Origin: Craspedostauros australis | Lineage: Eukaryota | DNA: 60,206 nucleotides | Assembly: GCA_030167865.1 (NCBI GenBank) | Contig: JALAGF010004357.1 | Coordinates: 1-60,206, forward strand | Reading direction: 5' to 3' | Shown here: one piece after another, positions 34,142 through 55,038 of the stretch | How the letters are laid out: the number at the start of each line of letters is the position of its first letter | Position numbering within the stretch: the stretch's first letter is position 1 | Program-made: the position numbers and the translations under genes | Notes under the pieces: generated by a model | What the model saw: only the letters and a program-made list of their open reading frames with translations | What the model was told of the DNA's origin: nothing | Databases searched by the model: none

Positions 34142-35542
34142 CTATCTGAACCGCCGCGTCGACGTTGTGGGTGAAGACGGTGTGAGGCAGTCATTCTTGA
34201 TCAACGTGGCCTCGATGTCGTACAGATCCGGAGCCACGAAGATATCTCCCGTGTCGATCTGCCCCGTCTTCGTCACCGGCATCAGCTTGATCTGCCCCGT
34301 CATTCCCAGAAAGTCGTCGGTGCCCCCGGTGACCGCCATCGTCCCACCGAAGGCGTCGAAGATCTCACCAGCAACGTTCCACGTCCTGCTTTGCACGCCA
34401 TCGAAGAAGGTGTACGTAAACACGCAGTATCCGCCTCCGCTGACGAAGTTGCCATCCGCCATCACAGTCCGCTTTTGGGTGCGGGTGCAATGGCCAGTGG
34501 CAAAGGAGTTCGTGAACTCTTCCATGGTGGGGTTCCGCAGCAATCCATCGTTGTAAATGTACTCCGTTCCGAATTCCTGATCGTCGGGGATTGCGGGATT
34601 CACGTACACTGGGTTGGTGTCCGAGCGGCGAGCGCGAGATGCGAATTGGAAGAAGTCCAGCGTCGATGTCACAAAGCAGTCTTCTGGGTTGGGCGCCATC
34701 ATGTCAGGACCGCTATCTCCGCTGTCGCTGCTCGTCTTGTCTCTGGATCCCACCTTTGACCGACTGCCTGGTCCCGGATTCGGAGTGCCTTTTCCCACTG
34801 GCGCTGCTGTAGGTGCAGGCCCTCCCCCTCCTGTCGGTGCTCGTGTCGGCGGGTGAACCGGGGCTCCTTTTCCTGTTGGGGGTTTCGTGCTGCCCTTTCC
34901 GAGGAAGCCTTTTCCGTTGCTGCGGCTGCGGCTGCTGCTGCGACTAGAGCTGCTCTTGGAACTCTTCGAGCTTTTAGAACTCTTTGTGAGACGTCGAACT
35001 CCCTCACCTCGAAGGCCGCGGGATTGGGCGCTCTGATAGTCATCGCTATCATCGTACCTCTCATGGCTGGAATCATTGGTATCACCATTTTCTTCCTTGT
35101 TGTTGTCAATGCCGTTGATGTCTTCTCCTTGAAAACTGCTATCGTAGTCTTTGCCGTCCTCGTCTTCGTATCGTCGTCTGACCTTGCTGAACTTGTGGTT
35201 GTCCGATGGCCTATCGCCGGGCTGATACTCCTGCCGCTGCTCCTGTTGCTGATAGTACTGACGGTGCCGCTTGGACGGTTTCTTGGAAACTGATCGAGGC
35301 ATACTCTTGTGCTCAAATCGAAATGTCCTTCCATTTGCCATCGAGGGCTCGGCTTCGATCTCAACTTCAGCTGTTTCCAGCATCGAAGCAATCTGAGGAA
35401 CCTCCTGCCGACGCCCACCCCGAGGATGGATTGCATATACAGCACCTCCATTCTGCTGCGTCGATCCCGATTGGATGCACAAACAGATCAGACTGAGGAG
35501 GAGCGCCCTCGAACACCGGCTTCCGCCAGCCTTCATCGTCAT
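34142..35542 (-). CDS. Secreted RXL/KXXK silaffin-like protein with C-terminal dirigent/AOC-like barrel (array paralog 1, intronless)
   Basis: Signal peptide RALLLSLICLCIQSGS. RGL and RRL followed by TKSSKSSKSSKSSSSRSSSRSRS and GKG repeats, then a P/T linker. Domain FGTEYIY...GHCTRT...GGGYCVFTYTF...AVTGGTDDFLGMTGQI. Start 35542 or 35536 preferred (alternative 35644). Confidence 0.75.
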   Translation of the reverse strand: MTMKAGGSRCSRALLLSLICLCIQSGSTQQNGGAVYAIHPRGGRRQEVPQIASMLETAEVEIEAEPSMANGRTFRFEHKSMPRSVSKKPSKRHRQYYQQQEQRQEYQPGDRPSDNHKFSKVRRRYEDEDGKDYDSSFQGEDINGIDNNKEENGDTNDSSHERYDDSDDYQSAQSRGLRGEGVRRLTKSSKSSKSSKSSSSRSSSRSRSNGKGFLGKGSTKPPTGKGAPVHPPTRAPTGGGGPAPTAAPVGKGTPNPGPGSRSKVGSRDKTSSDSGDSGPDMMAPNPEDCFVTSTLDFFQFASRARRSDTNPVYVNPAIPDDQEFGTEYIYNDGLLRNPTMEEFTNSFATGHCTRTQKRTVMADGNFVSGGGYCVFTYTFFDGVQSRTWNVAGEIFDAFGGTMAVTGGTDDFLGMTGQIKLMPVTKTGQIDTGDIFVAPDLYDIEATLIKNDCLTPSSPTTSTRRFR

Positions 35543-36442
35543 GATCGCCGCCGTTTGCAGTCTCGATGTTTCCGAAGCTTGTCTCATCGTCGTGGCCATT
35601 CCATCAACTGTTTCTATCACGCTCTGCGGCACCATTCTGAACATCAACGAACTTTCGTTTTCATTTTCAATGAATCGCGATGAAGCAGTTGCTCACACAG
35701 ATGCTCCCGTCACAGCATCGCGCAGTCTCTTGTTGTCAACCCAAACCCATTTTTCTCACTCCGCTTCACCGGATCAATTTGTGGCGACAAAAAATGCCGA
35801 ATCGTTTTGCGTCAACAGAGAAAACGCTTTTATAACCGTCGCCGCCATTTCGACCCGCTCGACTGCATTATCACGAGCGTTGGAGTCATTTTTGAGTGCT
35901 CACTTTTCCTTGCTCCAGACACGCCGAAACGGGTACACATGGGCAGAGTGACACCATCATGTTCCGACTTGGGGGCATGAGGTCGCGAGCGCCATGGGCA
36001 TCCGCGTGATGGCTCAAGTCTCCAGCAATGCTGCCATGCGGTTGCCGTACTTCTGCGAGGAGGAAGACGCCAACGCTTGGGGAGACAACAGTGGCAACGT
36101 GGACATTCCGGAGACAATTCGTTTACTCCTCCATCGTAGGCCACAGTTCTACACTCGAGGGTGACAATGGCGTCTTGAGTGCTCGCAACTGCAATTCTAC
36201 CCGATTTAATCTTTCTTTCTCTCCAGCGATACGCACTCGATTCAATTCATTGGCGGAAACTCAAGAGATTATTGCTATTTCTAGAGAGTATGGTACCATT
36301 GTGATTCTAATGTACAACGCCTTTTTCACATGTGTTGACTGTGGGGTTCAATCGAGTCGATCTTTGCTGATCCAAGATCGCATCATATCATATTGCATCG
36401 CTTCCCCAATACCTCATCCGCGATGGGCGCACTGTCCGAGCC

Positions 36443-38408
36443 TTAGCGTTCGGTGCTTGCTTCGTCATCATCATCGTCACCAAAAAAGAGGATTTGATAT
36501 CTTGGATCCAGCAGCAGCTCAAAGTCCATCATGTACCCGTCAGTGCCCTCGAGGAAATCGATGGAAGTATCTTCAGTGGTCTCCACCTCAGGGTTGCCGG
36601 AATCGCCACCGTAGTCGCCTGGAGTGACCAGGATTTGTCCAGTGACTCCGAACAGCACACTCTGCCCACCCGTGATGCTCAGAGCGTTCTTGCCATTCTC
36701 GACTGGTCCTTCTGCGGTGAAGGACAAGGCGACGAAACCATCTTCGTCCAGGAGTTCAACGACAACCTCGCAGTAGGCCTTGCCGAAGCAATCAGTTCTC
36801 TTGCAGGCTCCCTGCACCAGTCCCATCAAGGGACCGAACATGAGCATCTGAATATTCTCCAGGGGCGCGTCCAGGAAGACGAAGGTCGTGCCCGGTTCGC
36901 TGTTCTCTCCACTGAGCCGTCTTTTGCCCATGTCGACCGTCTCTTCGATCGTCAGCGCACCTGACGAGGACGATGCGCCAGAAGTAGCAGAAGCTCCACT
37001 CTCGGATGGGACGGCGCTTGGAGCTGCGCTGGGTACAACGCTTGGGGCCATGGTTGTGGCTGCAGATGGCACGTTGGTTGCGTCGGCGCCGGTGGCCTCA
37101 GTCGGCACAGCAGATGGCGCAGCAGATGGCGCAGTCGATGGAGTTTCACTAAGTGCGGTGGGTGATGGTGTGACTCCCACAACTGGTATTATAGTTGGTG
37201 AGGGAGTTTGGGTTGGCACCATGGACGGGAATGGTGGAAACGTCTCGGTCGGAGTGAGCGTGATGTTTGGTGGAGCTGTGCGTGGTCCGGATCCGTCGAC
37301 ACACTGTTCCAAGTTTCCGGGTGCGTTGAGAACGGTGGTCGCAGACATGGTCTTGTGGAAGAATCCCGAAAACACAAGACGAGACAGCAGAGTACTGTAA
37401 ATGTACATGTCAGAGGGGGTACGAGAGTGAGTAGGAAAGAAGGCGAATTTGGAGGAGGCATGTTGGTGGAGATGAGTGGGCATAGTTAGTGATTTGAACG
37501 CAGTGTGAAGCATGTAGCAAAAAGGCACCTATTGTGTGCAAGACAGAATAGAAGAACTGTCGGCCACAAGGCAACGTGAACATGACTTACTCATCGTCGT
37601 CCTCATCATCCTCGTCGCCGTCCTCATCTCCGTCTTCGCCATCATCTTCGTCGCTTTCTTCATCACTTCCAGTCTCTGTTGGAGTCAGGGTGTCGGCGTT
37701 GCTTGGGGATGGAGTTGGAACAGCGCTCTCGGCTCCATCCATCTGGCCAGGTTGATCGTTACCGGAGGATCCGTCGGCTCGGTTGTCTGAATCGTCGTCG
37801 ACAGTATCATCCGTGATAATCTCCACAACGGTGTCGTCGCCCGGCACGGTGTCGTCGTCATCCCAGTAGTCCGACTGCTCCCCGTTGAGGCTGTATGTTC
37901 CGACTTCGACGTAGGTCTTGTCGTTGTTATCTCTGTTGTCGCTGTTGTTGGAATTGTAACTGCGACCATAATTGTCGTAGTTGCCGTCGTTGCCGTCGTT
38001 GTTGACGTTGGCATTGTTGTGGTTGCGGTTCGAGTTTCCACCATGATTACGGTTCCCGTTGTGTCCACCACCCTGCTGCTGTTGGTGATGCTGGTTCTGC
38101 TGTGGATTGTGGCGGCCATTGTTGTTGTTGTTGTACTTGTAATCTGGTTCGGGGTATCTATCTCTTTCATCCACATACTTGACATGATGATGGTGATGCG
38201 TGGCAAGTCGTCGTTGCGCATTGATGTCGTTGGTGCTTGGCAAGATGCCCGTCTTCTTCAAGAAGTCGATCGTTGCATCCTCATAGATACGATCGACTGG
38301 ATTTGTTCGGATGAGCTGATCAAGATCAGCATGCTCGTCTGGTGTGCATGATGCAAGCTGTGCTGTTGCCACGATCAGCGTCGCGGCCAGGAACAGTTCT
38401 GCCTTCAT
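36443..38408 (-). CDS. Secreted His/Asn-rich and acidic protein with dirigent/AOC-like barrel (paralog 2); 2 exons (38408-37591, 37394-36443)
   Basis: Signal MKAELFLAATLIVATAQLASC; RRL-ATHHHHH; N/Q-rich then D/E-rich region. Intron 37590-37395 (GTAAGT...TTTACAG, phase 2) joins in frame to TLLSRLVFSGFF. Domain PGTTFVF...QGACKRT...GKAYC...AEGPV...ITGGQSVLFGVTGQI. Confidence 0.75.
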
Positions 38409-39549
38409 TGTCGTATGCTGTTCACTGTCTTGGAGGAATGTACCAGGATGCGTTGCCTTTATGGAATGGCTGACGGTGTGGACAGGATGAGGCCAAACAA
38501 TGTCTCGGTGTGTCGTATTCTGGATGCAATGGAGTGTGCGTGCGTGTGTGTGTATGTTGTAAGTGCGAGAGCGATCGAGACTGTGAACACCGATCGTATT
38601 GTGTGCTGGCTGATGATGGCGAGATAATGGAAGAGCAGGAGCGCCTGCTGTCAATGCCAGTCCATACTCTGCGCGCGGCAGGAGTATTGGCTGCAAGATG
38701 GATGTCAGAGATTTTGTCGCTGCTCGATGCGATGGTGGATGACTGCTTCGTGTGACAGGGACAGGGACACGGATGCAGGAGCACGAGTCGGAGCGTCAGC
38801 TGCCAAAATGTGAGGCCGTTGATGACCAAAAATTTGATCGCGCACCCCGATTACCGCAGGCTGTCCACGCCAAAGTTGCGATCGTTGGGCTCATGGCGCA
38901 GCTCGGAACATGTGCTTCGGATGCGTGGAAGGCGTGACGCAAGCCTGCCGACGACAATGCGCACCCGAATAGTGACGACCAATAACAACAAACAATAACC
39001 GTATGTATCGCACACAGAACTGCACACAGAGATATGCGGACTCTCAGACCACGGAGATGCAATCGGTGTTGGCGACAAAGCGCACATCGGAAAAAGAGAT
39101 GCCAACGCCCGATTTTGTGACCAGAACATGTTCGGAAGTTGGTCGTGGACGTTGGTTGACGGATTTCGACAACTGTGAGTCGAATGAGTCAGATCGACCG
39201 CCGCGATGACTTCTTTCGCGCCAAATCTGCCGTCCTTCGAACCGGTGCAGGCGAACGCTCCATGGTGGCCTGGTTGGTTGTGCGCGGCAGCTCGTATGAC
39301 CAATGATTGGTAGTATGTGCGTCCTGCAACACTGCCCATCAGACAAGTATATCATGCTAGATTCTGGAGAGAGGACTAAGGTTGTGTGGTTCGATGAGCG
39401 CAGGAGCTGTATTCGATGTGGGGCGGTCATACGATAATCACCAAAAGCAAGAGACGTATAAAGCGTGTTTCTTTATTGTTGTAATACGACAGGTTGTAGT
39501 AGTATGATATTACACGACGCAACCGTGCTGCCTCTCTGTTCCTCTATGA

Positions 39550-40830
39550 TTAGCTCATCATCTCTCCCTCGAGATCGAATCGTGGCATAACGGCAACCTC
39601 AATGCGAAGTTCGAATCCATCATCGTTGGGAAGGTCGAGAAAGTCGCGATCGGCGTCGCTGAGACCGCCATCGTCCACCGCGGATGGAATCACGATCACA
39701 TCACCCGTGACGCCAAACAGTCCGCCAGATCCAGAGGTCACCACCAGCTTGGAGCTGTCGTCGTTGCTGACTGGTCCTTCCGCGGACAACGTGGCGATGA
39801 TCTCCGGAGGATCCGACATGGCTTCGTAGAATTCCAACGTCCACTGGCAATACCCACGCCCTTCGTAGTTGTCCGCGTCGCTGGGTGGGTTGGCATCCGT
39901 GCGGATGCATTGTCCTTGGAGACGGCCTTCCTGTCCCAGAACTTCGCCGTCAAAGACGTTGAACAAGCGTTCGTTGGCGAACACATATGTGGTGCCAGGA
40001 AGGAAGGCGTCGCCCGCCTCCGGGTCTGGTGAAACAGGAGAATGCAACATGCTGGTGTCCACGTATCCGTTGAACATCATGAAGATTGGGACCTCTGGCG
40101 TCGTCGGGTCTGAGCTATCGCCGCTGCCGCTTCCACTGCTTCCAGATTTTGATGTCTTGGAGGACTTGCTTGTCTTCGGGGACTTGGTGCTTCTTGAATA
40201 CACCATGTCTTCATCCTCGCTGTTTGTGTGAATGTTTATGTCGTACGAGTATTGACGGCAACAGTTTCATGGAGTGCGCAGTGCATGGTGTGACGAAGGA
40301 GCCAAAAAGGGTGAGCACGTGAATAAGAACAAGAACATGCGCCGTGTGCTGGACGATGTCTTGGCATGACGTTATGCTCTTCAAATGATGTTAATGAAAC
40401 GGAAACGACTCTATGCAGCAACGAAACAGCAGGTACTTGTGTGTGAGTGTGTACACTTCGACGATTCTCACCTGTTGTCTCTGGTTGTGTCTTCATCGGA
40501 GTCTTCATCGCTGTCATCGGATCCAGCGGATGGTGTTTGTTGGTCGGATTCAGCAGCTTCTGTGGTGGAATCCTTGGTACCCTCCTTCAGCGTGGAGCTC
40601 TCACTGTCTTCTTTGTTTGACTTGGATAGCTTCCGTGTTCGCTGCCTCTGCTTCTTCTCTCCTTTCACGATCATGGTGTTGTTGTCGATGAGCTTTCGCA
40701 GCTTTCTCGTGGTCGTCTCGGGGGATTCCACATCTGCGGCTCTCTCGTCTGGGTTCATCAGAATCGCTGCGTTGGCAACGCATGCCAAGTGGCATACCAA
40801 CGATGTAGTCAATAGCAAGGATGGCTTCAT
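39550..40830 (-). CDS. Secreted RXL/KXXK protein with dirigent/AOC-like barrel (paralog 3); 2 exons (40830-40472, 40219-39550)
   Basis: Signal MKPSLLLTTSLVCHLACVANA; RKLRKL and RTRKL. Phase-2 intron 40471-40220 (GTGAGA...AAACAG) gives DNS-EDEDMVY. TKSPKTSKSSKTSKS, then PGTTYVF...QGQCIRT...GRGYC...AEGPV...VTSGSGGLFGVTGDV. Confidence 0.78.
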
Positions 40831-41672
40831 GGTCGTTTGTCTGCTTTGTGCTTTTGTCGATCGTTTTGGTATTCGGGTGTTTGGATGGGATTGCTTCCGC
40901 TGCTACGAGATGCGCTTTTGTCTTGTTATGACGGCAGCGATGATGATGTTGCTGATGTCGACAGCTGATCCCGTTCCACTCGGCCCTCTGTTCGCAATGC
41001 TCGTAGCGCACGGCGTTGTGACAGCACTCGGCGATCGGTAACGATGGTCGACAAGGAAGGCCACGAGGACCACATCTGCCAAAAAATTGGGATGAACGGC
41101 ACCATTCGGAAAATTTTGTGAGTGGGCCGCAAGGAGCAGCTCTCCGTGCGCCATGTTGGCGGCCCGCTCGCGAAAGTGGTCGTGGTCCCATCCACGACTA
41201 GATAGCAAGTTGTAGTCGACTGAGTCATCATCATGAGTCCGAGCGTGATGGATCTGGACCACGACAATGATGATCGAGCATCCGACGAGCGGCCTCAGCC
41301 TGCTCTGGGACCATCGCCAGTCCTGTCGAATGGATGGAGTACCCGCAGAGTACCCGTAGAGTGATGGTGTGCTCCTTCCTTGGGCATCCATGGATTGTGC
41401 CGTTCGTCCAGCTGTCTACCGACGGACAAGTTCTTCCACATACCCTGACGACTTCATTCAACGACTTCTTTGCTGTGAGAAACGAGGTCGAAGACGCTGC
41501 TTATCAGAGATGTATCATCCGGCACACATTGGCCCTGTGGAGATTGTGCCGATTGCTCTCTAGAGATTGACTCTCTATTGCTAGTTTACATTGCGTCGTC
41601 TTCTATGGCAGGGTATGATAATGTTACATGGGTACAGGTAGAATGATCGAGTCAAATTTGAGCTTCGTGCAC

Positions 41673-42974
41673 TCATCGGCGTGCTTCCATGGCCGTCCCG
41701 AAGAAGCTATCCAGAATGAGGAAAATTCCATGCACGTATCCCATGGGTTCCGTGAGGATGTCGCCCTCTGCCTCCACGACTCTCGGCGGATCAAAGTCCA
41801 AGTCGAGATCCGCAGGGTTGATGAATACCTGCCCAGTTACGCCTTCGAACAGATCGGTTCCACCCTTCACCGACAATGTGGCGCTCTCTGCCTCCGAAGA
41901 GTCTCCGCTGTCCTCGCCGTTGAGCGCGGAGATGATATCGCCACCACCTGGTCGCAACTTCAGGAAACCGGATGCCACGAACGATCCGATCTCTGCTTCC
42001 GTCTCTGGATCGGCCACTGTGTAAGTGAATCGGCACAGGCCCGAACTCTCGCCATCCTCGAGACGTTGACAGTATCCATCAACACGCGTCCAGACCAAGA
42101 GCGCAGCCTCGAGATCAACGAAGGCGGTGCTCTCGAAATTGCTGACGTTGGTTGCATTTCTTGTGAAGTTAGTGTAGAGGAAGAGAGTGCCCGCATCAAG
42201 GTCGCTGCCATCAGGAGTGGGTGGCACGACAGATGGGTCGTTTGGCTGGAATGCGATGATAGTCACATTGGATCCCAGCGGTGGCAGCTCCTCCGTTGAA
42301 TTCCCTTCCATGGTTGGCGCTGCCGTTGGAACATCGACATCGCCGGACTCATCCGATGAGGTTGGCGCTTTGGTAGATTTGGATGCCTTGCTGCCCTTGC
42401 CTTTTCCTCCGCTTGGTCCAGATGGACCGGAGTACTTGGATCGCTTGTGCACTACTTCTCCACTATCACCATCCTCATCGTTGTCATAACTCCTGTTTGT
42501 GTGCAAATGTTGGCGGTTGTTCCATTCGAAGCCAGCAATGAATATGAGCGCCGTACAAAAGATGCGGTTCAGTGTCATGTGAGTTGGCATTTACACTAGA
42601 CAGCAGAGAAACACTTTGCGTTCGCCAAAGTCGACAAGAGGTCATGCGCTCCATCAATGTATTTGCTCATCCAACCATCCATCTATCCAACTATTCATCC
42701 ATCCATCCGGCCGTCCACTCGCTGGAGACGTTCCGCGTTTCACTTGTAGTTGTACTCACCCTGATCTCGCGTTGCTATCACCTGAAGTTTCGTCATCGTT
42801 CGAAGAGTAATCACTCCACAGAAACCTCTGCATTCGCGTTGGCTTGATTGCGTTAGCACGAGCCCTTCTCAATCTCTGCGAAGTGACTGTCTGCGCCACC
42901 ATGAGAGCAAGCATCATGCACACGACCAGAGTCATTTTTGACAGCGGTCTCGTCGATGTTGCGTGAGAAGTCAT
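41673..42974 (-). CDS. Secreted RXL/KXXK protein with dirigent/AOC-like barrel (paralog 4); 2 exons (42974-42760, 42492-41673)
   Basis: Signal MTLVVCMMLALMVAQTVTS (ATG 42974 or 42935); QRLRR and QRFL. Phase-2 intron 42759-42493 (GTGAGT...AAACAG) gives RSG-SYDND. GKGKGSKASKSTKAP, then AGTLFLY...DGYCQR...SGLCRFTYTV...VKGGTDLFEGVTGQV. Confidence 0.75.
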
Positions 42975-43444
42975 GCTTGTCGTCCTCTTTTGTTTGTTCA
43001 GTGTTGTGGGTGTTCGAGTGCGATGCTGCTTCTGCTGTGTCTGTTGATATCGCTGCTGCTGCTGTTGTGAATATGTCCGACGATGGTGTTGTGGGTTGAT
43101 GTCCGGTGTTGATGTTTGTCTCGCGTCCGTCTCAAAGTATGCTCGAGTGTTGCGGTTCTGGTCTTTCGTTTCAGTATTCGGGATCACAGTATGCACTTGT
43201 GTGATTGTGCGGTCCATCGTTTCTGTGCTCTGAGTCGCACTCTCATGATGCGGCTTACTGTTGGCAACAAATCATCGAGTAGGAACGCCGCCACGATACA
43301 CTACCCTACCCAACTCTACACTACCCTCCTCCGCTCCACTTCCGATGTGTGATGATCACCGTCGGGTGTTGGCCGTGTGACTCCCTGCCTGCGCAATCAA
43401 AGTCGCAAACCTGAGAGGTGCACGGCCAAAAAATTGCATGGCGC

Positions 43445-43578: not shown

Positions 43579-43870
43579 TGGTTCTTCGGTACGCATGGAA
43601 TCTCAGCAAAGGATGGAACAGGTGCTTTCCTTTCATCGTATCCACAGAGCCACAACCGTGGAGCATAGAGCGCAGAGCACAGAGTACTCCACTCGAACTC
43701 ACAGTGATGGATCTGCTGCTTGGCATCTGCATCCATACCACATCATCGCCCCCCGCCGTCATCATCACCACCGCCGCTACCGTCACGACTACCCATTGAT
43801 CTCGATCCATTGTCGCATGCTTCAGTCAAGCAACCGTCTCAAGCACACGCCAACAACATCAATTGGCAAC

Positions 43871-46800
43871 ATGTCGACATCGACATTGAGAGCACCTCCG
43901 AGACGACGGAGGAAACGAGTTGTTGCGGAAGAGAACGCTCACCGAGATGACAATGATGAGAACAAGCACCCGCAATTCATGAACATGCACTCGCGGACAT
44001 CCAGCATCGCCGATGATGAGCACGATGGCTTCCTCAGCAAAGAGATGGAAGAAGAAGGAATTCCTGGAAAGGCATCGAGATATATACCACCACCACCGCC
44101 ACCATCACACGTGAAGAGCCGGTTCCTGCGATCAATGTCGATCAGCCCGTTGTGCGAGAAGCTGATCAAGAAGTACCCATCGCTTACCGATAACATCCTC
44201 CGCATATCATGCTCCCAGCAAGCTGCATCGTCGCGAACTATGAGCCATAGCATTCCTTCAGTCCTTCGTGAGAATGTCTCCAAGATCATCTCCATCAGCA
44301 GAAACATCATCAAGGACGCATCCCAATCGAAATCGAGAACAGCCACGATAATCGACGCCTACTACATTGTGACACACTTGCTGCGTGCAGTGGTTGGTGC
44401 CACTCCGAAAGGATCCTCCAAGTCGGAAGCCGTCATCAAGCTGCTCTACCATTGCATAACGAAAGTGTCGGAATTGGGTTGCTCCAAGGAAACCGAGCGA
44501 AGCGCGGATGACGCAAATAGCACCAATGAGATGATGCTCGTCATTTGCTTCGTGTCGTGGGACACCTTGTGCACAGCACTTGAGTCGTACCGAGTGCCCA
44601 TGGGAGGTGATGGGATGGTTTCATTCCGACGAGACGCATTCGATGCAGCCATCCCCTACATAACGGCAAGCAACAAGGACGCTGACGCGAATGCTATCCA
44701 GGCCACCATGAACTTTCGACAATCAATCACACTTGTCATAAAGTCAACGATCGCCATGACGCTTTGCTTGAAACGAGCAATCATTGTCAACACTGAATGG
44801 CCAGCTCAAGAGATCTCCGACTTCGGCTTGTCAACATCGAAGCTTGGCTCCTGTACAGATTTCATGATTCAGATTTTCCACAGAACCATCGAACCTACGA
44901 TATCGTTCGTTATCCAGCACCGAAATTTGGACAGCAGTGAGGCGATCTGCGATGTCAAGTCACACAGCAAGTTATCCTTCTGCACACTGTGGGATCTGTC
45001 GTCGAAGCTGAAAAATCGCGCGGATGTATCTCCAGAAACGCTCCTGCGGATAAGGCGGTGCTCACTCCTGATGAATCTTCCTGAATGTAAAGATGACAAT
45101 ACTTCGAGCGAGGTCTTCGGCACAAAGTTCATCGCTTCCATCTGCACGTATGCACGCAAAGCAGCAGCATCTTACCTCCAACATCAAGAGCATGCTGCAC
45201 GTCCTTCACAGATTTCACGGAAGGGGTCACCACTGTGGAGCTTCTACGAGAGTCTGACTGAGCGATTCGTCTGTTTGGAACGATTCGAAGCTGCCATCCC
45301 AATCGAGTACATGGAATTCGCAGTGACCAGATCTGTCCACACGAGGTCGTGGCTGGACGTCGGAGAACACGATGAGGACATGACCGACACGTCAAGAGCA
45401 GCTCTTACCTTTTGCAAGTATGCCTTGGCCATACGATTCGCGCTGGAATCCGATGAGCCTGTGTCAGATACATCAATGCTGCAGTTTTGTAACGATGTGA
45501 TGCAGATGTTCCAAGGTGTAATAACACAGCGAGAGTTGCGGGCTGAGGAACTGGAGCAATACATGAGGCTATTCAATTCGATCCAACTCTCACGCGCAGT
45601 CGGAATCTTCACGAAGCAATCTGCACCAGCAGACGATCTGAAGGTCCCCATGGAACTACAGATTGCCTCTGCGTTGTTGACCAACTGCCTTTGCCCTTTC
45701 ATCGTGGAACAAATCGTTCCCATGTATTCCGATGACAACGACGTTCAGGATGCCACCACAACTACCACCGCCACCGCTACCGACAACAGCAACAGCCGCG
45801 AAAGCGAAGAACATGGCAGGTTGAAGCAAAAGGAGGAGCACCATGCAATCTTGGTGGATTGCTACGCCAAATCGATTTTCGCCCTGGACTGTCTGGCAGC
45901 CAAACTCAATGACTCTCGTTATGAAGCGATGGCGGATCAAACGGCGCTCAATCTGGTCGAGTCTCTCAGCGACGACATGTCGCGTCCACTTTTGGAAAGA
46001 GCTGCGAAGACAATCGCGATCATCGCGCGCCAACGGACGGAACGATCAAGCTTCAGTGGAGCAGCCTCGGCGCATCTCATCGCCTTACGTCAATTTCATG
46101 ACATTCAGGTTGCTTCGGATGGATTTGTCACCTCGGACTTGCAGCTCGTCAACAGATGGGCGCATCTGAGCTCCGTCTACCAGTCGGCACAGAGGCTGGA
46201 CGAAGCGATGCTGTCTCTCTCGGTGACACTGCGACTGTCCATCGAAGAAGCTGCTGATGGCGCACAACTTGATCAAGCGCGAGATGCGATTCCACTCAAT
46301 GTTTTTAAGGTGTTGCTATCAAAGACGGTGCCATTCGTTCCATCCGAGGATATTGCCGACGGCCGGACAGTTTCCACACAGCTCTCGCTGAGCAAGCGAT
46401 TTGTGAAGCTCGGGGTCAAGCGCATCCTTGGAGGATGCCTCGAAATATCATCCAACATCACATCGAACAACAACAATGCCATAGATCACGACAAGGTCAT
46501 CGAGATGCTCTACGAGAGTCAGGACTCTGACTTTGAGATGGTGTGGACGGAGAATGCCCACGGGTCATTGTCCATCGAATCACTCTTCGGTGCCATCGTG
46601 ATGACAGACACATGCACTTTGTCCACAGCATACGACCAGGTAGTCATGCTGACGGAGATGCTGTCGACGCTTTCGATGATGCTGCAGTATCAAATTGAGC
46701 ATGACGACAGCAAGATCCTCGAGACGCTCTTGTCGTCCTTCTTGGAGCTGGTCGTGATGGCAGCCGAGCGCATTCACTTTCTGATTGGGGAATTCTGTGA

Positions 46801-49800
46801 TGGCTTTTCGAGAGCCCACATTGTGGCTCTCTACGCAATGGCCAGCACTGTCCTGATCAGGGTTGGCCGTTTCCATGACAGCACCAGCATCAACCAAATG
46901 AAGTTAAGTCTCCAGGATCGGCTCCAGATGAACGATGTCGATGCGGCTATTCAACAGCTGAATGGCGGTACCCAACGATCACTTTTGTGCGCCTCCATGG
47001 CATACGCCCGATACAGCAACGCACAAATGGACTCTTCAACAGAAGACCCGATCGCAGATGTGGAAGCGTCCCAGATCATCGCATTGTGCAGAGATGTCCT
47101 TGATTCTGCTGTTGCCGCGACAGGTCCCGCAACTTCCATGGGCAACAGTGAGGACGGTGATGGCACGGAGACCGCCATCAAGCTATCGATTTGGACACTG
47201 ACGAAGTTGCACAGCATCCTTCCAGACCACCACGGCTTCCTCGGGCAACGATTGCAATCCGCATCTATGCTCGTTGAATTTGCGGGCCGCCTGGATGATT
47301 CAGATCTTGCTGATTGGCACAAGTGGATTGCCCTCACATCTTGCTTGAATGAAGACATCGCGTTGTCACCTTCCAAATCTGTCACGGGGAACGCGACTTG
47401 TCTCGAAGAACTCATCCAAACCCTGTCCCCTTTTCACACAGATACACTCGTCATTTCGCCTGCGATCGGTGCAATCATGAGCCAAGTTGCGTGGATGCTC
47501 AGGAGCAGCGCATCTTCGCACGACATGCAAGAGCTCAACCACATTCTCTCTGCACTTGACTCCACGCTGATGGATGTCACAAACTCCAGCGTAGATTCAA
47601 CATCGCCGATGATGACTGTTCTCACCATGTGGACACGGAGTTCAGTCCTGCTCGTTCGAGCCACTGCGGCATTGCGAGGGTGGAATCCCAGACACGCCGT
47701 GCAGCTGGTGGAAGAATCAAGGCGGCTTAGCCAATCCACGAGGTCAGTGATGAGACAGGCCGTCTCTGCGAACTCATCGCAAGCACCATTCTGGCTGCAA
47801 TGCTTCGCAGAGGTGCTGCCCCGACTTCTGAAGCGACACCAAATGGTCTGCTATCACATCGTATCAGGGCTGTGGTGCTTTGCAGGAGACTATCGGATGT
47901 CGCAGAGCTACGCAAAGGGTGTTATGGCAATACTGGAGCAACAGCGAGCAACGACAGTGTCAGCGTCAGCGTCAGCGTTGCCGAATGAAGCCGCTGATGC
48001 GTCATTGGACACAGGAGCGTCTTTTGTGCAGCAGGGTGCGATCGAAAATTCGATCTTGCTCATCCAATCTACGTCAAAGAACCTCGATGGGCTGATCGCT
48101 GACGCTGCTACTGTAGAAGAGAAGCAATGCAGCCTCCCGAGCCCGGGTGATCCACACGCATCGATCAATCACGTCTTGCAGTGCGACTATGTGATGAAGA
48201 TGGGAGATATGCTATACGGCGAATCGTCAGCTCCCAAGAGCTCTCCGTTTGGCACATTCTACAGCAAAGCACATACATTGTTGAACTCCATCTCCGACAC
48301 GGATGTGCAGCACGACTTCTTGGCAAAGTACGATGTGGACAGGATCACGATGCACCTGCAGTTGAGGAGGATTCGATATCTGTCGTTGAACCCGGATGCG
48401 AAATCGAAATCTGAGTCTGACCAGCAGATTGTTGAACTATGCGATACGGTGGTCGAGGCTCCATCGGCTTCCATCGGTGATGTGGCCTGGGCATGGTACT
48501 ACCGTGGACTTTACCATTTGCGTGAAGCCAGATCGGGCAATCAGTTGCAGCATTTCTGGCACAGCAGAGACGCAATGAGCAAGAACGACACAAACGACAC
48601 AGATCGCACCCCGTTCACACAACAATCGTCATGCATCGCACGAGCCCGTTCGTGTTTCGACAACGCTCTGCAGAGAGCATCGAGTTCATCTGATATTTTG
48701 ACGCGCAAAATACTCCGGTGCTTGGCTCTATGCACAGGTCCAGAGAGAGGCGATATGGCCGATTCCGATTCCGATCCAGATTCGGCCTCGTACTTGATCC
48801 TTTGCTCCATCGGACGGCTGCTTCGAGATCAGATGAGGGCCGCATTGGACGACTGCAGCAACAACCACGCGGAAGTGTTTCGCGCCTTTGACGATTCGTT
48901 CTTCGAAGCAAAGAATCGACGCAAGCGCTTCGATGCGTTCCTGGATATGCTGGCGAAGCACGTGCCACCGAACTGGAGGTTTGTCGGAATTGCCTTGTGC
49001 CCGACGGGTGAAACATTGATGACGCGCATTCGCAAGGAACGATCCGCAGGAACAGGGAGGTGGCGAATGGTCTGCAAGTCTCACTGCATTTTCCCAGAGA
49101 AGGAGGCTGTCATGGACGAGCGCGGCGGGGCGTATTCGTACAACAAGATCGTGCGGCCGGTCGACGAGCTGATTGACGAGAGCGAGCAGCACCTGCAACA
49201 AATGGCAACTTCCAGCGCAGCCGATCGGTTGAAGCAAGACTCGGGCAAACGAGCCTGGTGGTCCGAACGTACGGAACTGGATGAGAAGATGCAGTCGTTG
49301 ATGTCGGACATCGATACGTATCTGTTCCAACAGCTGGATCTGGCGTCAGATGAAGATGCATCGATGGATGATTTGGCCGATCAATTCAGCACGACCCTGA
49401 ATCTGTCGGACAGCGAAGACAAGCGCATCGAGCTGATGAAATTGACCGTGCCGAAGCTGAAAGAGCGATTGGCCGCATTGGATGTCCCGGCATCGAAGTA
49501 CCGCAGGCTGAGGAAGAAGGAGATCATCGACATGGTGGTGGAAGCGGAAGGTGACGCAGCAGTTGACTCATCTGTCGGAAGCAGAAAGGATGGCATGAAG
49601 CCAGTGTTCCTGCTGGTTCTGGACGAGAACCTGCAGCGCGTCCCCTTCGAAGGCACCCCGACGCTGCTGGGCAAATCCGTGTGCCGCATTCCATCGTTGC
49701 CGCATGCGCTGATGACGCTGATGGAACGCAAATCACGCGAGATCGATCCTCTGAACGCCAAGTACATTCTGGATCCTGAAGCCAACCTCCTGAGCACCCG

Positions 49801-50404
49801 GCGACGCTTGGAGCCCGTGATCGACGGCCTCGTCGATAGATCCAGCTGGGATTGGAGCGGCGCCATTGGCAGCAAGCCATCCCCTGAGTTCGTGGAAGAT
49901 GGGCTGCGACGCGACGATGGATTGATGCTGTACATCGGACACGGCGGTGGCGAGGCGTGCTTCACCAAGCGGCAAGTCGAGGCGTTGATTCGCGATGGCA
50001 ACGATGCGACGACGCAGACCACCAACAGCGGACGGGCATGCCACGCCACCGTGATCCTGATGGGCTGCAGCAGCGGACGGCTGACCTCCATCAATCGCAG
50101 ACACGCCCGAGTGTTCGACGAGCTTCCCCTGTACTACGATCCGGAAGGCGTCGCCCTGTCCTACCTCCTCGCTGGAGCGCCCTGCGTCGTTGGCAACCTG
50201 TGGGACGTCACCGATCATGACATCGACCGGTACACCATCAAGCTCTTGGGTGACTTTCTCGGTGACAACCAGCAGCGCAGGTCGCTCGCCCAATGCGTCG
50301 CAGAGGCACGCACGGCATGTAAGATGCAGTACGTGGTTGGCTGCGCGCCAGTTTGCTACGGCATCCCAGTGATACCACGATTCACGAGTAACGAGTCACG
50401 CTAA
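43871..50404 (+). CDS. ESP1: Separase (peptidase C50)
   Basis: ORF of more than 2100 aa with a long helical N-terminus. WWSERTELD, LVLDENLQRVPFE, YILDPEANL, catalytic LYIGHGGG and LMGCSSG, VVGNLWDVTDHDID, GCAPVCYGIP. Start uncertain (43595, 43817 or 43871). Confidence 0.93.
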   Translation: MSTSTLRAPPRRRRKRVVAEENAHRDDNDENKHPQFMNMHSRTSSIADDEHDGFLSKEMEEEGIPGKASRYIPPPPPPSHVKSRFLRSMSISPLCEKLIKKYPSLTDNILRISCSQQAASSRTMSHSIPSVLRENVSKIISISRNIIKDASQSKSRTATIIDAYYIVTHLLRAVVGATPKGSSKSEAVIKLLYHCITKVSELGCSKETERSADDANSTNEMMLVICFVSWDTLCTALESYRVPMGGDGMVSFRRDAFDAAIPYITASNKDADANAIQATMNFRQSITLVIKSTIAMTLCLKRAIIVNTEWPAQEISDFGLSTSKLGSCTDFMIQIFHRTIEPTISFVIQHRNLDSSEAICDVKSHSKLSFCTLWDLSSKLKNRADVSPETLLRIRRCSLLMNLPECKDDNTSSEVFGTKFIASICTYARKAAASYLQHQEHAARPSQISRKGSPLWSFYESLTERFVCLERFEAAIPIEYMEFAVTRSVHTRSWLDVGEHDEDMTDTSRAALTFCKYALAIRFALESDEPVSDTSMLQFCNDVMQMFQGVITQRELRAEELEQYMRLFNSIQLSRAVGIFTKQSAPADDLKVPMELQIASALLTNCLCPFIVEQIVPMYSDDNDVQDATTTTTATATDNSNSRESEEHGRLKQKEEHHAILVDCYAKSIFALDCLAAKLNDSRYEAMADQTALNLVESLSDDMSRPLLERAAKTIAIIARQRTERSSFSGAASAHLIALRQFHDIQVASDGFVTSDLQLVNRWAHLSSVYQSAQRLDEAMLSLSVTLRLSIEEAADGAQLDQARDAIPLNVFKVLLSKTVPFVPSEDIADGRTVSTQLSLSKRFVKLGVKRILGGCLEISSNITSNNNNAIDHDKVIEMLYESQDSDFEMVWTENAHGSLSIESLFGAIVMTDTCTLSTAYDQVVMLTEMLSTLSMMLQYQIEHDDSKILETLLSSFLELVVMAAERIHFLIGEFCDGFSRAHIVALYAMASTVLIRVGRFHDSTSINQMKLSLQDRLQMNDVDAAIQQLNGGTQRSLLCASMAYARYSNAQMDSSTEDPIADVEASQIIALCRDVLDSAVAATGPATSMGNSEDGDGTETAIKLSIWTLTKLHSILPDHHGFLGQRLQSASMLVEFAGRLDDSDLADWHKWIALTSCLNEDIALSPSKSVTGNATCLEELIQTLSPFHTDTLVISPAIGAIMSQVAWMLRSSASSHDMQELNHILSALDSTLMDVTNSSVDSTSPMMTVLTMWTRSSVLLVRATAALRGWNPRHAVQLVEESRRLSQSTRSVMRQAVSANSSQAPFWLQCFAEVLPRLLKRHQMVCYHIVSGLWCFAGDYRMSQSYAKGVMAILEQQRATTVSASASALPNEAADASLDTGASFVQQGAIENSILLIQSTSKNLDGLIADAATVEEKQCSLPSPGDPHASINHVLQCDYVMKMGDMLYGESSAPKSSPFGTFYSKAHTLLNSISDTDVQHDFLAKYDVDRITMHLQLRRIRYLSLNPDAKSKSESDQQIVELCDTVVEAPSASIGDVAWAWYYRGLYHLREARSGNQLQHFWHSRDAMSKNDTNDTDRTPFTQQSSCIARARSCFDNALQRASSSSDILTRKILRCLALCTGPERGDMADSDSDPDSASYLILCSIGRLLRDQMRAALDDCSNNHAEVFRAFDDSFFEAKNRRKRFDAFLDMLAKHVPPNWRFVGIALCPTGETLMTRIRKERSAGTGRWRMVCKSHCIFPEKEAVMDERGGAYSYNKIVRPVDELIDESEQHLQQMATSSAADRLKQDSGKRAWWSERTELDEKMQSLMSDIDTYLFQQLDLASDEDASMDDLADQFSTTLNLSDSEDKRIELMKLTVPKLKERLAALDVPASKYRRLRKKEIIDMVVEAEGDAAVDSSVGSRKDGMKPVFLLVLDENLQRVPFEGTPTLLGKSVCRIPSLPHALMTLMERKSREIDPLNAKYILDPEANLLSTRRRLEPVIDGLVDRSSWDWSGAIGSKPSPEFVEDGLRRDDGLMLYIGHGGGEACFTKRQVEALIRDGNDATTQTTNSGRACHATVILMGCSSGRLTSINRRHARVFDELPLYYDPEGVALSYLLAGAPCVVGNLWDVTDHDIDRYTIKLLGDFLGDNQQRRSLAQCVAEARTACKMQYVVGCAPVCYGIPVIPRFTSNESR

Positions 50405-50592
50405 ATTAGACCTCACGTTTCGTTCTGTCCGTGAGTCGTGCAGTCCAAACGATGTTAATCGCACGACCACAAGAGGCACACGCACAGAGAGGGCGCCCCC
50501 ACAAAATGCAGACGCTGTGCTGTCCATGGTGCCCAACTCTCGCTCTGCATAAAAATATTGTATTGTGGAAGCAAGACAAGAATCAAGACAGG

Positions 50593-53500
50593 ATGGAGGA
50601 CATCCAGCTGCAGGATGACCTGCTTGGATCAGGCTTCGGCAGCGGCATGTGTCCGTGTCCCGTGGGTGTGAATGATGTTGGCGGCAGCGTGGCGGGGTCC
50701 GTTCGCGCGCTGCAAAGTACCAGCGATGACAGCACCAGCGGAGAGACGTGGGAGGTGGTGTACAGCGTGATTGTGCTGGTGTACATGACCGTGGCATTGC
50801 TGTCCGATCGCATCGGCGCGGACTCCGTCATGCTGTCCGCAGTCACCGCCTTCCTGGCCGCCGGCATCATCTCCATCGAGGAGGGCGTGGACGGCTTCTC
50901 CAACGAAGGCCTGCTCACCGTCCTCATCCTCTTCGTCGTGGCCGAGGGCATCTCCAGAACGGGGGCCCTAGATTGGTACATGCAGAAGCTGCTGGGCCGT
51001 CCCAAGACCACGGCCAGCGCGCAGCTCCGCCTCATGCTGCCCATCGCCATCGTGTCGGCCTTCCTCAACAACACGCCCGTCGTGGCGGTCATGATACCCA
51101 TCGTGCAGCGCTGGGGGCAGAACATACGCATCAGCCCCCAGCAGCTCCTCATCCCGCTCTCGTTCGCCAGCATCCTGGGCGGGACCTGCACGCTCATCGG
51201 GACGTCGACCAACCTCGTGGTCGTCGGTCTGCTGGACGACAGGTACAAGGACGATCCCAACACCGATGTCACGATCGGCCTCTTCGATTTGGGCTTGTAC
51301 GGTGTGCCGATCGCCATGGCCGGCATCTGCTACATCCTGCTCACCAGCCCCTACTTGATCCCAGGTGGTCGCGCAGGCAGCAACGGCCAGCGGGGTTCCA
51401 TCCAGCTCAACGGCCAGGAGGACGTCCTCCTCGGGGCGCGTCTCTGCGCGTGGTCTCCGGCCGCCGGTCGTTCCGTCAAGCGTTCCGGGTTGCGTGACAC
51501 GGGCGGAATCTACCTCGTCAGCGTGCATCGTTCCGCGACGGGTAACGTGCATCGTGCGGTCGGTCAGGAGTTCGTCCTGCAGGTCGGCGACATCCTCTAC
51601 TTCACGGGATTGGTCGAAGGTTTCGGCCTGTTCTGCGAGGAGCATGGGTTGGAGGTCGTCACAAACGAATCGGTTCCATCCGGTAAAGCTGCCGAGACCG
51701 CGACCGCGTCATCCACGCAGGAAGGGCCAGCCAAGGGTACAACAGGAGAGGATGCATCCAATGGTGACATGTCGCCTGGCTCATCACCGCAGCAAGCTGC
51801 GAACGGGGTGTCAGCAGGTGCAGGCGTGACATTTGCTACCAACACCGATGGTCCTTTTGGCCAACACCAAATGCCCAGCAAAAGCCCCTTCCTCGGTTCC
51901 AACCTGGACTTGCCGGTGGTCGTGGAGGAGGGGGAATTCAAGACGGAAGACATGAGCGAAGTTCCAATCGAGGTCGGTGTCACCAAGGAATCCCTCATCC
52001 AGGCAGACGAAGCCGAACGTTCCAGATCCATCACCAGAATGATCGATCTCATCCGTGGGCAGGCACGTGACGAACCGGCCGAAGAGGCGCTCACCATGAT
52101 GACGTCGGCACCGTCATCCACAAAGAAGGGACGCCAACGTATTCCCCGCGTCGCGGAGGGAACAGGTGGAGCGGCGGCCACGGATCCGCCAAAGATCGTC
52201 GTGAACAGCGATCAAGGCTCTGTCGTCGTGGGTGTCAACAGCATCGACCGTCCAGGTCTGCTGCTCGACATCTCCAAGGGTCTCCTCAGCCTCAACCTCA
52301 CATTGCGTCACACGGAAGCAGCGGTCGTGGGGATGCGCTCCATCTCCATCTGGCGTTGCGAGTTGCTGGATTCCGAACTGCCGGACCTCGAAGAGATTTG
52401 GAGCGTCCTCAACGCACTCCTAGAAAGCGAGAACGGCATCCAGGCCGTCAAAACACGTGGCCTGCGTGTCATTCGCGCCGCGATCACCAAAACATCCACC
52501 CTGATCGGACAGACCGCATCCGAAATCAACTTCCGTCGTCGATTCAAGGCGGCCATCGTGGCGGTTCAGAAGGGCGGGCGCAACGTGCCGCTTGCTGGAT
52601 TCCAGTTTGGTCCCGGTGACGTCATGGTGCTGCAGGCCAGCGAAGATTCGCCCCTGCTCAAGCCACCGCCGGAGGACTTTTACAAGCGGCATGCTGGCGA
52701 CAACAAGACGCACCAGAACAGCGACGGGGGCAGCGTCTCGCGATCTGGTTCAGTCGCATCCTTCGTCAATATCTTCCGATCCAAGAGCGGGGCCAATCTG
52801 GACAAAAGCAGCAAGAGACGCATGACGAACGATGGCAAGCACGCCACTCCAACCAAACTGTCAGCAGCAGCAGATCAAGACGAGCACAAGCATGGTGATG
52901 GAGACGATGCGGCAAAGACTCCTGCTGCTGCAGAGGCTCTGCGTACGCCAAGGCATTCTAACGTGGATGACGACGAGCAGGACTTGGAAGCAAATCGATC
53001 CCGCAAACCGGGGGAACATGAAAGTGGCGACGATGACATGGACGGCTACTTCATCAGCGACGACGAAGACGACGACGATGATGATGATGCCACTCCTGGA
53101 GTCCAGCGATCGGTGGTGGAACTTTCGGGACTGGAGAGTGTGGATCAAACCATCCTGGAGGAAGCTGCGTGGAAGGACATTCAAGTATACTTGCCGGCGG
53201 GAGCGGATGGCGATGGAGAAGGGGCGGGTGCCACACGCGAATTCCTCACAGCCATGGAAATCGCTGAGAATTCGAAGCTCGCGGGTCGCACCGTGGCAGA
53301 AATTGGCCTGGACAAGCTTCCTGGCGTCTTCCTTGTCAGCATCGATCGACCCACTCACCCGTCCGAGCGCCATCATCAGCCAGGCCTCCATCATCAGCAA
53401 AGGAAAAAACCAAGGCTCACCGTGATCACGAATCCATCCGATGCCAGCGCGGAGGGTCAAGACAACGAAACCGCGTCCGTTGCGAACATGGAGGCGACGT

Positions 53501-55038
53501 TCATCACCATCGCGCCCGAAACTGCTCTGAAAGAAGGCGACGTGCTATGGTTCGCGGGTTCTGCTTCTGCTGTCGGCGATCTGCGCAAAATCCCTGGTCT
53601 CATGTCCTATGAAAGTGAAGAAGTTGCAAAGATCAACGAAAAGGTGTACGATCGTCGATTGGTGGAAGCTGTCGTGGCAAGGCGTGGACCGTTGGTTGGC
53701 AAGACAGTTAAAGAGATGCGATTCCGAACACGGTACGGTGCCGCCGTTATTGCCGTTCATCGCGATGGTCGACGTGTCCATGAGCATCCCGGCCGAGTCA
53801 AGCTGCAAGCCGGTGACGTCCTCTTGCTGGAGGCTGGCCCAACTTTCATCAAACGAAGCGTGGACAATGATCGATCCTTCGCCTTGCTTGCCGAAGTCGA
53901 AGACTCGGCACCACCTCGGTTGCGATTCCTCATCCCGGCCTTGCTCATCACGGCTACCATGCTGGCCGTCTTCACGGCGAACGTAGCATCCCTGCTCATC
54001 TGCGCGCTTGTCGCATCCACTCTCATGATCATGCTCGGGATTCTATCAGAGCAAGAGGCCAGAGATGCTGTGAACTGGGAAGTGTACATCACCATCGCCA
54101 GCGCGTTCGGAATCGGAACCGGATTGGTGAACTCTGGTGTTGCGGGGGGTATTGCCAGTTTCCTGGTGGATGTTGGAGAAGCAGTCGGAATTGGAGGTGA
54201 GAACAATTGGACTCAAAGCATGAAAATTGGATGTTGCCACTGACATGCATTTACCTTTGCATATGTGGTACGCGATGGCGTATGTTGGAATGTGTTGGGA
54301 TGGTTGTTCTTCCTCGACTCAGCCTCTCACCAACTCACATCTCCTTCATCTTTCTTTTATTCCTTGCTTGTGGAATGGGTCCAATGTTGTTGTTATTGTT
54401 GATGTTGCATAGATGCTGGTTTATTGGGAGCCGTCTACCTTGCGACCTTCCTGATCAGTAACATCGTGACAAACAACGCAGCTGCCGCCCTCATCTTCCC
54501 AATCGCGATGGATGCGGCCGAACAGACCGGCGTGGACCGAAAGATCATGAGCTACTGCTTGATGCTTGGTGCATCCGCAAGTTTCATGTCACCGTTCGGA
54601 TACACGACGAATCTTTTGATTTATGGACCCGGAGGATACAAGGTAAGGTCATCATTGCGGTTACAGCCAATGCCTGTTGTGTTTGCGATCCTTCTGACTT
54701 GAAGTAAGTATGCTCCTTGCTGCCGCCTGTGGTCACTCCTGTCCATCATCTCACCCTTCGTCTTGATGGGTTACGTCCATTTGCATATTTCACACTGTTA
54801 CCAACCACACCATGTGATTCCATTGAACAAACAGTACTCTGATTTCCTGAAAGTGGGAACACCGATGCAGGTCGTGCTTTGGCTCCTGTCCATCTTGTTC
54901 TTGTCGATGGATAGCAGCCAATGGTGGCTGAGCTGGATCATAACGTCCATCGCGCTGATCATGATCATCATGTCCAGCGTGTTTGGCATGTCTTTGTCCT
55001 CCTTCACGTCGTCATCCAAGCAGGCGCCCTCCTCGTAA
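50593..55038 (+). CDS. SLC13/CitMHS-family sodium:sulfate cotransporter (SLT-like) with RCK_C (TrkA-C) and ACT domains; 3 exons (50593-54196, 54413-54642, 54835-55038)
   Basis: GFSNEGLLTV, SAFLNNTPVVA, GGTCTLIGTSTNLVV, several TrkA-C repeats (LVGKTVKEMRFRTRYGAAVIAVHR), TNNAAA, SPFGYTTNLLIYGPGGYK. GT-AG introns 54197-54412 and 54643-54834 are in frame. Confidence 0.9.

Follow-up and report, generated by a model that had tools for sequence, protein, structure and literature searches.

The window analysed here, 60,206 nt of the diatom Craspedostauros australis (GC content ∼ 53%; contig C4357 of a 65.9-Mb assembly), contains an array of four minus-strand genes, A to D, assembled from seven open reading frames (ORFs). 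Their predicted products place a hydrophobic leader and R-X-L (RXL) sites ahead of a C-terminal eight-stranded barrel of the dirigent/allene oxide cyclase (AOC) type, and all except gene B also carry lysine repeats resembling those of silaffins. This fusion family appears to be undescribed and is widespread, with named members that are all pennate diatoms. We consider it about an even chance (roughly 0.5) that its members are RXL-processed proteins of the cell wall or silica deposition vesicle (SDV), in which the barrel trimerizes the lysine tails and binds a ligand.

Barrel domain and silaffin-like tails

The C-terminal domains of A–D share 20–36% identity, and 6/6 pairs outscore 500/500 shuffles. 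By this comparison the four genes are real paralogues, and the homology proposed in the initial annotation stands. The elements G-T, G-x-C-x-R, a second Cys and G...TG are common to all four; the motif first given for the second-Cys site, G-x-x-L-C, does not extend to gene D, which reads S-S-G-L-C. Pfam Dirigent (PF03018) scores gene A at 14.5–17 bits vs a gathering cut-off of 29.1 and does not match B, C or D; one relative with two barrels, P0040, passes it (29.5 bits). Among 122 aligned members (E up to 0.1), 38 match Dirigent, 26 AOC_like and 19 Allene_ox_cyc, and the best sequence-profile match in the PDB is an allene oxide cyclase (E 2e-7 to 3e-8).

AlphaFold models the gene A domain as an eight-stranded barrel with a predicted local distance difference test (pLDDT) score of 94.3. 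The model superposes on PsPTS2 (Z 14.0, root-mean-square deviation (rmsd) 3.0, 138 residues aligned), PodA (5k21; Z 13.5, rmsd 2.4, 120 aligned), AtDIR6 (Z 13.2) and AOC (Z 12.9), with scores well above those of unrelated barrels. On the models of genes A and B, the domain is a dirigent/AOC-type barrel, as had been suggested from sequence patterns.

Six residues are invariant (G63, C65, C86, G105, G120 and G129). The two cysteines lie on β3 and β4 and occur in 100% of 144 aligned domains, in all three clades described below. R67 is kept in 86% (Lys in 7%) and is absent from 20% of the clade that holds B and C; D146 is kept in 91%. A GGTG-type motif closes β6 (G119 99%, G120 100%, T 66%, G 64%). 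On β1, an Asp is found in 38% at one site, rising to 95% in the B/C clade, and a Gln in 58% at another. The Asp40/Arg141 pair of plant dirigents is not kept family-wide, with no conserved Arg at 128–132 on β7, in a register that is assumed for these residues rather than taken from a residue-level superposition. Likewise, at β1 positions 10–14, where we take the catalytic Glu of AOC to map, no Glu is among the common residues. All 144 barrels carry an acidic net charge (144/144, median −15). From strand alternation relative to the interface residues of the trimer model, C65, R67, C86, F88 and Y90 would face the pocket.

The homotrimer model of the gene A barrel scored 0.87 vs 0.00 for the best of three controls; the runs had at least 69% of contacts in common, with a partner pLDDT of at least 73. 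In calibration, the mark applied was reached by 21/30 solved microbial homo-pairs and 0/23 monomers, and by 17/29 eukaryotic pairs, but by 1/7 of those where no solved relative exists. The invariant glycines 63, 105, 120 and 129 sit in the modelled interface. The barrel thus modelled may form a homotrimer. Since dirigents, AOC and PodA are all solved trimers, the score shows likeness to them, not binding, so that the oligomerization first suggested gains a plausible model and keeps this reservation.

Tail statistics were collected from 51 full-length relatives out of 147 (the repeat protein P0144 and the array-locus proteins P0002 and P0003 were left out), selected for a Met start, a hydrophobic N-terminus and at least 90 residues ahead of the domain, and were compared with 200 local shuffles. 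There are 208 lysine pairs at spacing 3 vs 101 ± 9 in shuffles (maximum 132), and 150 at spacing 6 vs 96, while spacings of 1 and 2 are depleted. RXL occurs 71 times vs 29.5 ± 5. The strict pentalysine cluster, defined by the published regular expression K..K..K.{1,2}K..K, is present in 8/51 relatives vs 0.9 in shuffles (maximum 4), SKS.K-like variants, which are enriched in silica proteomes, in 18/51 vs 7.4, and two K..K motifs in 28/51. At family level the silaffin-like motifs are statistically real, a stronger signature than the single locus could have given. In centric species, the pentalysine cluster was reported in 29% of silica proteins vs 1.5% of background proteomes (three diatoms; bioRxiv 10.1101/2021.09.18.460806). 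Signal peptide, RXL, KXXK and PT repeats together were described as the signature of Si-responsive silaffin-like proteins (PMC5501833).

RXL sites are present in 4/4 array genes, as annotated initially. Lysine motifs are less uniform: gene C alone has the strict cluster, whereas A, D and a fifth paralogue on another contig (C840, L002:1471-2910, minus strand; single exon, E 6e-21) satisfy the weaker two-K..K rule. This fifth copy has the same layout as the array genes, with RQL/RAL/REL sites and K..K blocks; an Ala/Thr/Pro-rich ORF lies downstream of it and runs off the end of the locus. KSSK proper, named in the initial annotation as a silaffin motif, is confined to A and C; D has KGSK/KASK/KSTK and B none. 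The array proteins are not silaffins in the strict sense. Where a protein has both RXL and a K block, the final RXL comes before the final block in 34/36 cases, so that processing would leave tail and barrel joined. Tails vary widely across relatives (Gly/Tyr-rich, Asp-rich, Lys/Gly-rich). Putative signal peptides were assigned as hydrophobic N-termini by eye and hydropathy, the hydropathy rule holding for 45/55 long relatives that start with Met, and no C-terminal membrane anchor was found (0/149 relatives).

Gene models, upstream motif and family history

The joins within A–D were judged by homology alone. The resulting features are, with in-window coordinates:

34142..35542, minus strand: gene A, encoded in one exon (466 aa), with a hydrophobic leader, RGL/RRL, a KSSKSSKSSK block, a P/T/G linker and the barrel
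34160..34681, minus strand: gene A barrel domain, eight strands, with invariant Cys65/Cys86
34955..34984, minus strand: lysine block of gene A, which follows RRL immediately and has four K at i+3 spacing, short of the strict pentalysine rule
36443..37394, minus strand: gene B exon 2; β1 at 37355-37384, P/T-rich insertion with RRL at its end (36914-36922), β2–β8
37395..37590, minus strand: gene B predicted intron, 196 nt, GTAAGT..TTTACAG, phase 2, based on collinearity with P0009
37591..38408, minus strand: first exon of gene B, with the leader, RRL and a region rich first in His/Asn/Gln and further on in Asp/Glu; zero K..K; aligns to the P0009 N-terminus
39550..40219, minus strand: gene C exon 2; pentalysine cluster at 40147-40185 (residues 132–144), then barrel
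40220..40471, minus strand: gene C predicted intron, 252 nt, phase 2; same join in database model P0002
40472..40830, minus strand: first exon of gene C, with the leader, RKL three times and an acidic Ser/Thr region; based on the clade propeptide profile
41673..42492, minus strand: gene D exon 2; K..K block, P/T linker, D-subfamily barrel
42493..42759, minus strand: putative 267-nt phase 2 intron of gene D, with a tandem acceptor; the most doubtful of the three joins
42760..42935, minus strand: putative first exon of gene D, with the leader and RFL; a further in-frame ATG lies at 42974

Gene A has an alternative ATG at 35536 and further in-frame ATGs as far as 35644. The collapse of seven ORFs into four co-oriented genes, proposed initially, is backed by homology for B and C and remains weak for D. 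Because in-frame GT-AG pairs are numerous (7 in B, 13 in C, 25 in D), an open frame by itself proves nothing. Gene B (exons 38408-37591 and 37394-36443, predicted product 589 aa) is collinear over residues 1–577, at 41%, with P0009, an orthologue of 560 aa from a different source; the alignment spans the junction, immediately past which a conserved island begins. For gene C (exons 40830-40472 and 40219-39550, 342 aa predicted), exon 1 scores above 300/300 shuffles on a profile of eight N-termini from its own clade. The database protein P0002 is identical to the predicted spliced product, and is not independent support since it is probably an annotation of the same genome. For gene D (putative exons 42935-42760 and 42492-41673, 331 aa predicted, or 330 aa with the tandem acceptor 3 nt away, the form used in the domain-pair shuffle test), 20/300 shuffles equal or beat exon 1, compared with 97/300 for the unspliced alternative start; the unspliced ORF corresponds to database protein P0003, whose N-terminus is hydrophobic too. 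The introns of C (40220-40230) and D (42493-42503) share identical last 11 bases, and all three predicted introns are phase 2 and lie in the acidic region ahead of the lysine block or β1. These common ends, phase and position suggest descent from one ancestral intron.

The single architecture claimed at first for all four proteins holds for RXL sites and barrel, and fails in gene B, which has no K..K motif and appears to carry its P/T stretch inside the barrel. In the exon 2 model a strand at residues 4–13 is followed by a disordered P/T stretch to ∼ 165 with RRL at its end, and then by β2–β8. Residues 1–296 match the PsPTS2 barrel from end to end (Z 13.0, rmsd 3.0, 134 aligned; mean pLDDT 65.7, 78 in β1 and mostly < 50 in the insertion). 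The exon was folded with P0009 and 13 relatives that largely lack β1, in an alignment chosen so that the relatives gave little β1 signal. A profile test of the upstream β1 gave no significant result (418/500 and 287/500 shuffles did as well), and its placement relies on the conservation in P0009 and the AlphaFold model. On this model, the ∼ 140-aa P/T stretch is an insertion in the β1–β2 loop rather than a linker before the barrel. The RxL site of the insertion is kept in P0009, so a cut there would nick the loop, a segment described as a possible lid in dirigents (PMC4340379).

A shared sequence precedes three of the genes:

38826..38836, minus strand: CAAWTTTTTGG, 428 nt upstream of gene B
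41079..41089, minus strand: CAAWTTTTTGG, 259 nt upstream of gene C
43426..43436, minus strand: CAAWTTTTTGG, 501 nt upstream of gene D, in the gap common to the separase gene

The motif has the same orientation before B, C and D and occurs three times in the window vs 0.04 expected. Corrected for its post hoc choice, an equally good shared motif arose in 6/300 shuffled sets and 31/1000 random four-region sets. GGTGC precedes it, and three of the eight genome matches to this extended pattern are the array sites; the other five have no silaffin-like ORF adjoining. Gene A and the C840 copy show looser T-tract variants. This pattern hints at co-regulation of the array. A wider silica regulon was rejected: 27/49 other genome sites of CAAWTTTTTGG fall in four repeat families, and the ORFs beside the remaining 22 appeared miscellaneous by eye. 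The four families are dispersed (L001-L075 set, loci L019-L067), with 12, 10, 3 and 2 copies.

A profile search gave 224 clusters of relatives at E up to 0.001, of which 142 reach 1e-10; the family analyses used the best 150. Named members are all pennate diatoms: Gedaniella, Pseudo-nitzschia multiseries (orthologue Psemu1 289301), taxon 186038, Fragilariopsis kerguelensis, P. australis, F. cylindrus (orthologue FRACYDRAFT_259257) and Nitzschia sp. Ordinary cultures and field samples supplied many members, on contigs the size of transcripts. In a midpoint-rooted FastTree tree of 144/152 domains (short ones dropped), gene A and the C840 copy fall in a clade of 69 tips (support 0.91), B and C together in one of 46 (0.80), and D in one of 29 (1.0) that includes Pseudo-nitzschia orthologues. 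The array, as read from this tree, joins three subfamilies older than these species, and a recent tandem expansion was rejected on the same basis. The D clade is 54–99% identical across the domain (46 clusters). Genome searches revealed no clear copy beyond A–D and the C840 paralogue, which makes the copy number a lower bound. Synteny in other diatoms gave nothing beyond one 1.7-kb metagenome contig.

Searches confirmed no bacterial or viral relatives. Bacterial and giant-virus rows in the Atlas, at 0.91, are no more than leads, and a VapG row (E 0.63) was treated as chance. Longer or fused forms were absent from 8000 scored candidates (alignment A4), which is weak evidence. Among the collected relatives, P0040, P0222, P0224 and P0143 include two-barrel fusions that combine a B/C-type with a D-type barrel and a lysine-rich C-terminus, an arrangement that fits subfamilies acting together or having been neighbours. 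One of these proteins, P0143, has EGF repeats. A C-terminal Cys-rich module (C-D-C-x-D-C) occurs in 12/152 (P0019, P0055, P0057, P0064, P0081, P0086, P0087, P0099, P0109, P0113, P0116 and P0132), and 5/5 of those tested had no Pfam match.

The array is flanked on one side by a chalcone-isomerase-like ORF (weak, E 0.05) and on the other by a divergent separase gene (Peptidase_C50, E 3e-51; 43595-50404, plus strand), which stands head-to-head with gene D across a gap of ∼ 600 nt. A tie to cell-division timing through this neighbour is speculation. An ORF at 24638-26038 (plus strand) has a membrane-anchor-like start and a C-terminal RXYLT1 domain (E 2e-6) and is a possible xylosyltransferase. Ordinary genes of the window encode a helicase-associated-domain protein (10951-13263, minus strand), a DEP-domain protein (18276-22253, minus strand), a CitMHS/TrkA-C transporter (50452-54243, plus strand), an AAA_26 protein (56294-57163, minus strand) and a methyltransferase (57494-59122, minus strand).

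Possible functions of the tailed barrel

We suggest that the proteins are precursors of a pennate-diatom family sent via the endoplasmic reticulum (ER) to the SDV or cell wall. The leader, judged by hydropathy, would direct them into the secretory path, and such entry is supported by the invariant Cys pair, which lies on adjacent strands and is typical of a disulfide. By analogy with silaffin and Sin1 processing, a protease would cut after R-x-L and remove the propeptide, and the layout indicates that the lysine block would remain joined to the barrel. In the modelled assembly the barrel would trimerize via the Gly-rich β6–β7 face, so that a mature particle would present silaffin-like tails, three in all, on a folded core of acidic charge. 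These tails, probably modified with polyamines or methyl groups, would address or anchor the particle in silica. The pocket, presumably lined by the Cys pair, the conserved Arg and aromatics, might then bind a glycan, an aromatic radical or a similar small ligand and so help to organize or cross-link the organic matrix; this is the weakest step. Gene B would be an acidic, lysine-free variant whose barrel has a cleavable mucin-like loop, and it may reach the wall in mixed complexes. More tentatively, and with the odds clearly against it, pennates might have taken a bacterial-type dirigent-like barrel as a mix-and-match trimeric scaffold, with co-regulated paralogues of the three old subfamilies forming homo- and heterotrimers that present polycationic, acidic or mucin-like tails at fixed three-fold geometry, and with a pocket that guides cross-linking of the insoluble matrix. 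If so, there would be a folded silaffin class traceable across species, and this enzyme fold would have its first structural role in biomineralization.

Several observations weigh against a role in the wall or SDV. Gene B has zero K..K motifs, 10/51 relatives have none either, and the strict cluster is missing in 43/51. RXL marks the propeptides of many secreted diatom proteins, not silica ones alone. The published motif rates derive from centric diatoms, whereas the named family members are all pennate. The trimer score may be a memory of the solved dirigent, AOC and PodA trimers, and the strong conservation of the D-clade domain suits an enzyme equally well. Localization, proteome and expression evidence for the family was looked for in the literature and none was found, and the main text of the silica-proteome study mentions no barrel (bioRxiv 10.1101/2021.09.18.460806). 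In Supplementary Data 2 of PMC10328945, the InterPro AOC/dirigent superfamily, a level that may not equal the family of the array proteins, is counted 18 times in F. cylindrus, three times each in P. multiseries and T. oceanica, and 0 times in T. pseudonana, P. tricornutum and 8/8 silicified Parmales. Given the zero counts in T. pseudonana and P. tricornutum, we infer that the family would be a lineage-specific wall component and is not core silica machinery.

A secreted or wall-tethered enzyme seems a good deal less probable to us than a tail-bearing wall protein. The barrel would then be a working cyclase or dirigent-type catalyst, acting on oxylipins, coupling phenolic radicals or detoxifying a bacterial redox metabolite as PodA does, with the low-complexity part a mere tether or propeptide. 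The top fold matches are all catalysts or reaction guides, the domain is strongly conserved and the tails are not, Cys65 and Cys86 are invariant with Arg67 and Asp146 kept in most members, the B/C clade largely retains its β1 Asp, and PMC10328945 lists the domain under secondary metabolism, without discussion in its main text. Yet no acidic β1 residue is conserved family-wide, β7 offers no Arg, Arg67 is lost in part of the B/C clade, and the invariant residues are mostly interface glycines besides the Cys pair. The array has no biosynthetic genes beside it, and the periodic lysines would need a separate explanation. A matrix or adhesive protein acting outside silica is similarly doubtful. Here a trimeric lectin-like barrel with mucin-like P/T regions would cross-link mucilage, the diatotepum or adhesive pads; the lysine-free gene B, the EGF repeats of P0143 and the Cys-rich module of other relatives would suit this, the dirigent domain of OsJAC1 can bind galactose-containing sugars (PMC9405769), and a trail-protein preprint describes P/T-rich regions as characteristic of adhesive proteins in diatoms. 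The eight C. australis trail proteins of that preprint carry other domains, however, neither barrel nor dirigent nor cyclase appears in its main text, and pentalysine clusters point to silica. It is improbable that the proteins work within secretory compartments (ER, vacuole) or in something stage-specific like the auxospore, with tails that reflect general low-complexity evolution. Tails do vary widely among relatives, but the preference for lysines at i+3 and the placing of RXL before K depart strongly from chance, and many members come from ordinary cultures and field samples.

Work on silica proteins has been nearly all centric, and the barrel family offers targets for knock-out, tagging and structure determination in pennates. 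Should it prove enzymatic instead, a group of algae abundant worldwide would have a secreted activity of dirigent type that is so far unassigned.

Relation to known systems

As the initial annotation surmised, the family seems not to have been characterized before: we found no paper on the fusion of a barrel with silaffin-like tails, subscription papers and bioRxiv supplements, where a mention is possible, lying outside the search, and the domain is counted, with no discussion, in the supplement of PMC10328945. Papers on diatoms and dirigents or AOC, by titles and abstract starts, include none on the family; none was found for gene ids 289301 and 259257, and the supplements of PMC3832940, PMC7335047 and PMC9732472 gave no match. 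The literature on PodA likewise yielded nothing of relevance, and PMC6218421 supplied no residue data.

The nearest described group is that of the bacterial dirigent-like (DIRL) proteins, in which 42/49 have two Cys on consecutive β3 and β4, together with a GGTG-type motif (PMC9344732). Like DIRLs and PodA, the diatom proteins combine an eight-stranded barrel, a GGTG-type β6–β7 motif and a putative signal peptide, and they share the Cys pair with DIRLs, here invariant. Unlike them, they are eukaryotic and intron-bearing, have a conserved Arg two residues past the first Cys and add an RXL/KXXK/PT region of 100–400 residues. As no bacterial relative was recovered, an origin by transfer is a lead only. 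Plant dirigents (PF03018; PsPTS2, AtDIR6, DRR206 and OsJAC1-DIR) have the same fold and are secreted and trimeric, as the diatom proteins are predicted to be, but identity is 14–19%, plants have Tyr in place of the β3 Cys, and the Asp40/Arg141 pair described for them (PMC4340379) is not family-wide. Allene oxide cyclase (PF06351; Z 12.9, as above) has a β3 Cys that aligns with the first diatom Cys. AOC works in plastids and has its catalytic Glu on β1, whereas the diatom proteins have Gln/Ser/Met on β1, a second Cys in place of the β4 aromatic, and ER-type leaders.

Among silica-associated proteins, Silicanin-1/SiMat7-like proteins and SAP have in common with the family a leader, RXL and a luminal domain that contains Cys and is conserved. 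They differ in possessing eight Cys and a membrane anchor at the C-terminus, where the barrel family has two Cys and no anchors (0/149). Silaffins, cingulins and silaffin-like proteins share with it the leader, RXL, K..K repeats, PT repeats and, in gene C, the pentalysine cluster, although the lysine blocks of the barrel family are short and absent in gene B. Silica proteins are reported to be largely disordered, with orthologues that cannot be aligned between species (bioRxiv 10.1101/2021.09.18.460806). The barrel family, in contrast, has a conserved folded domain, so its orthologues can be traced, and it may give a rare alignable handle on diatom wall building.

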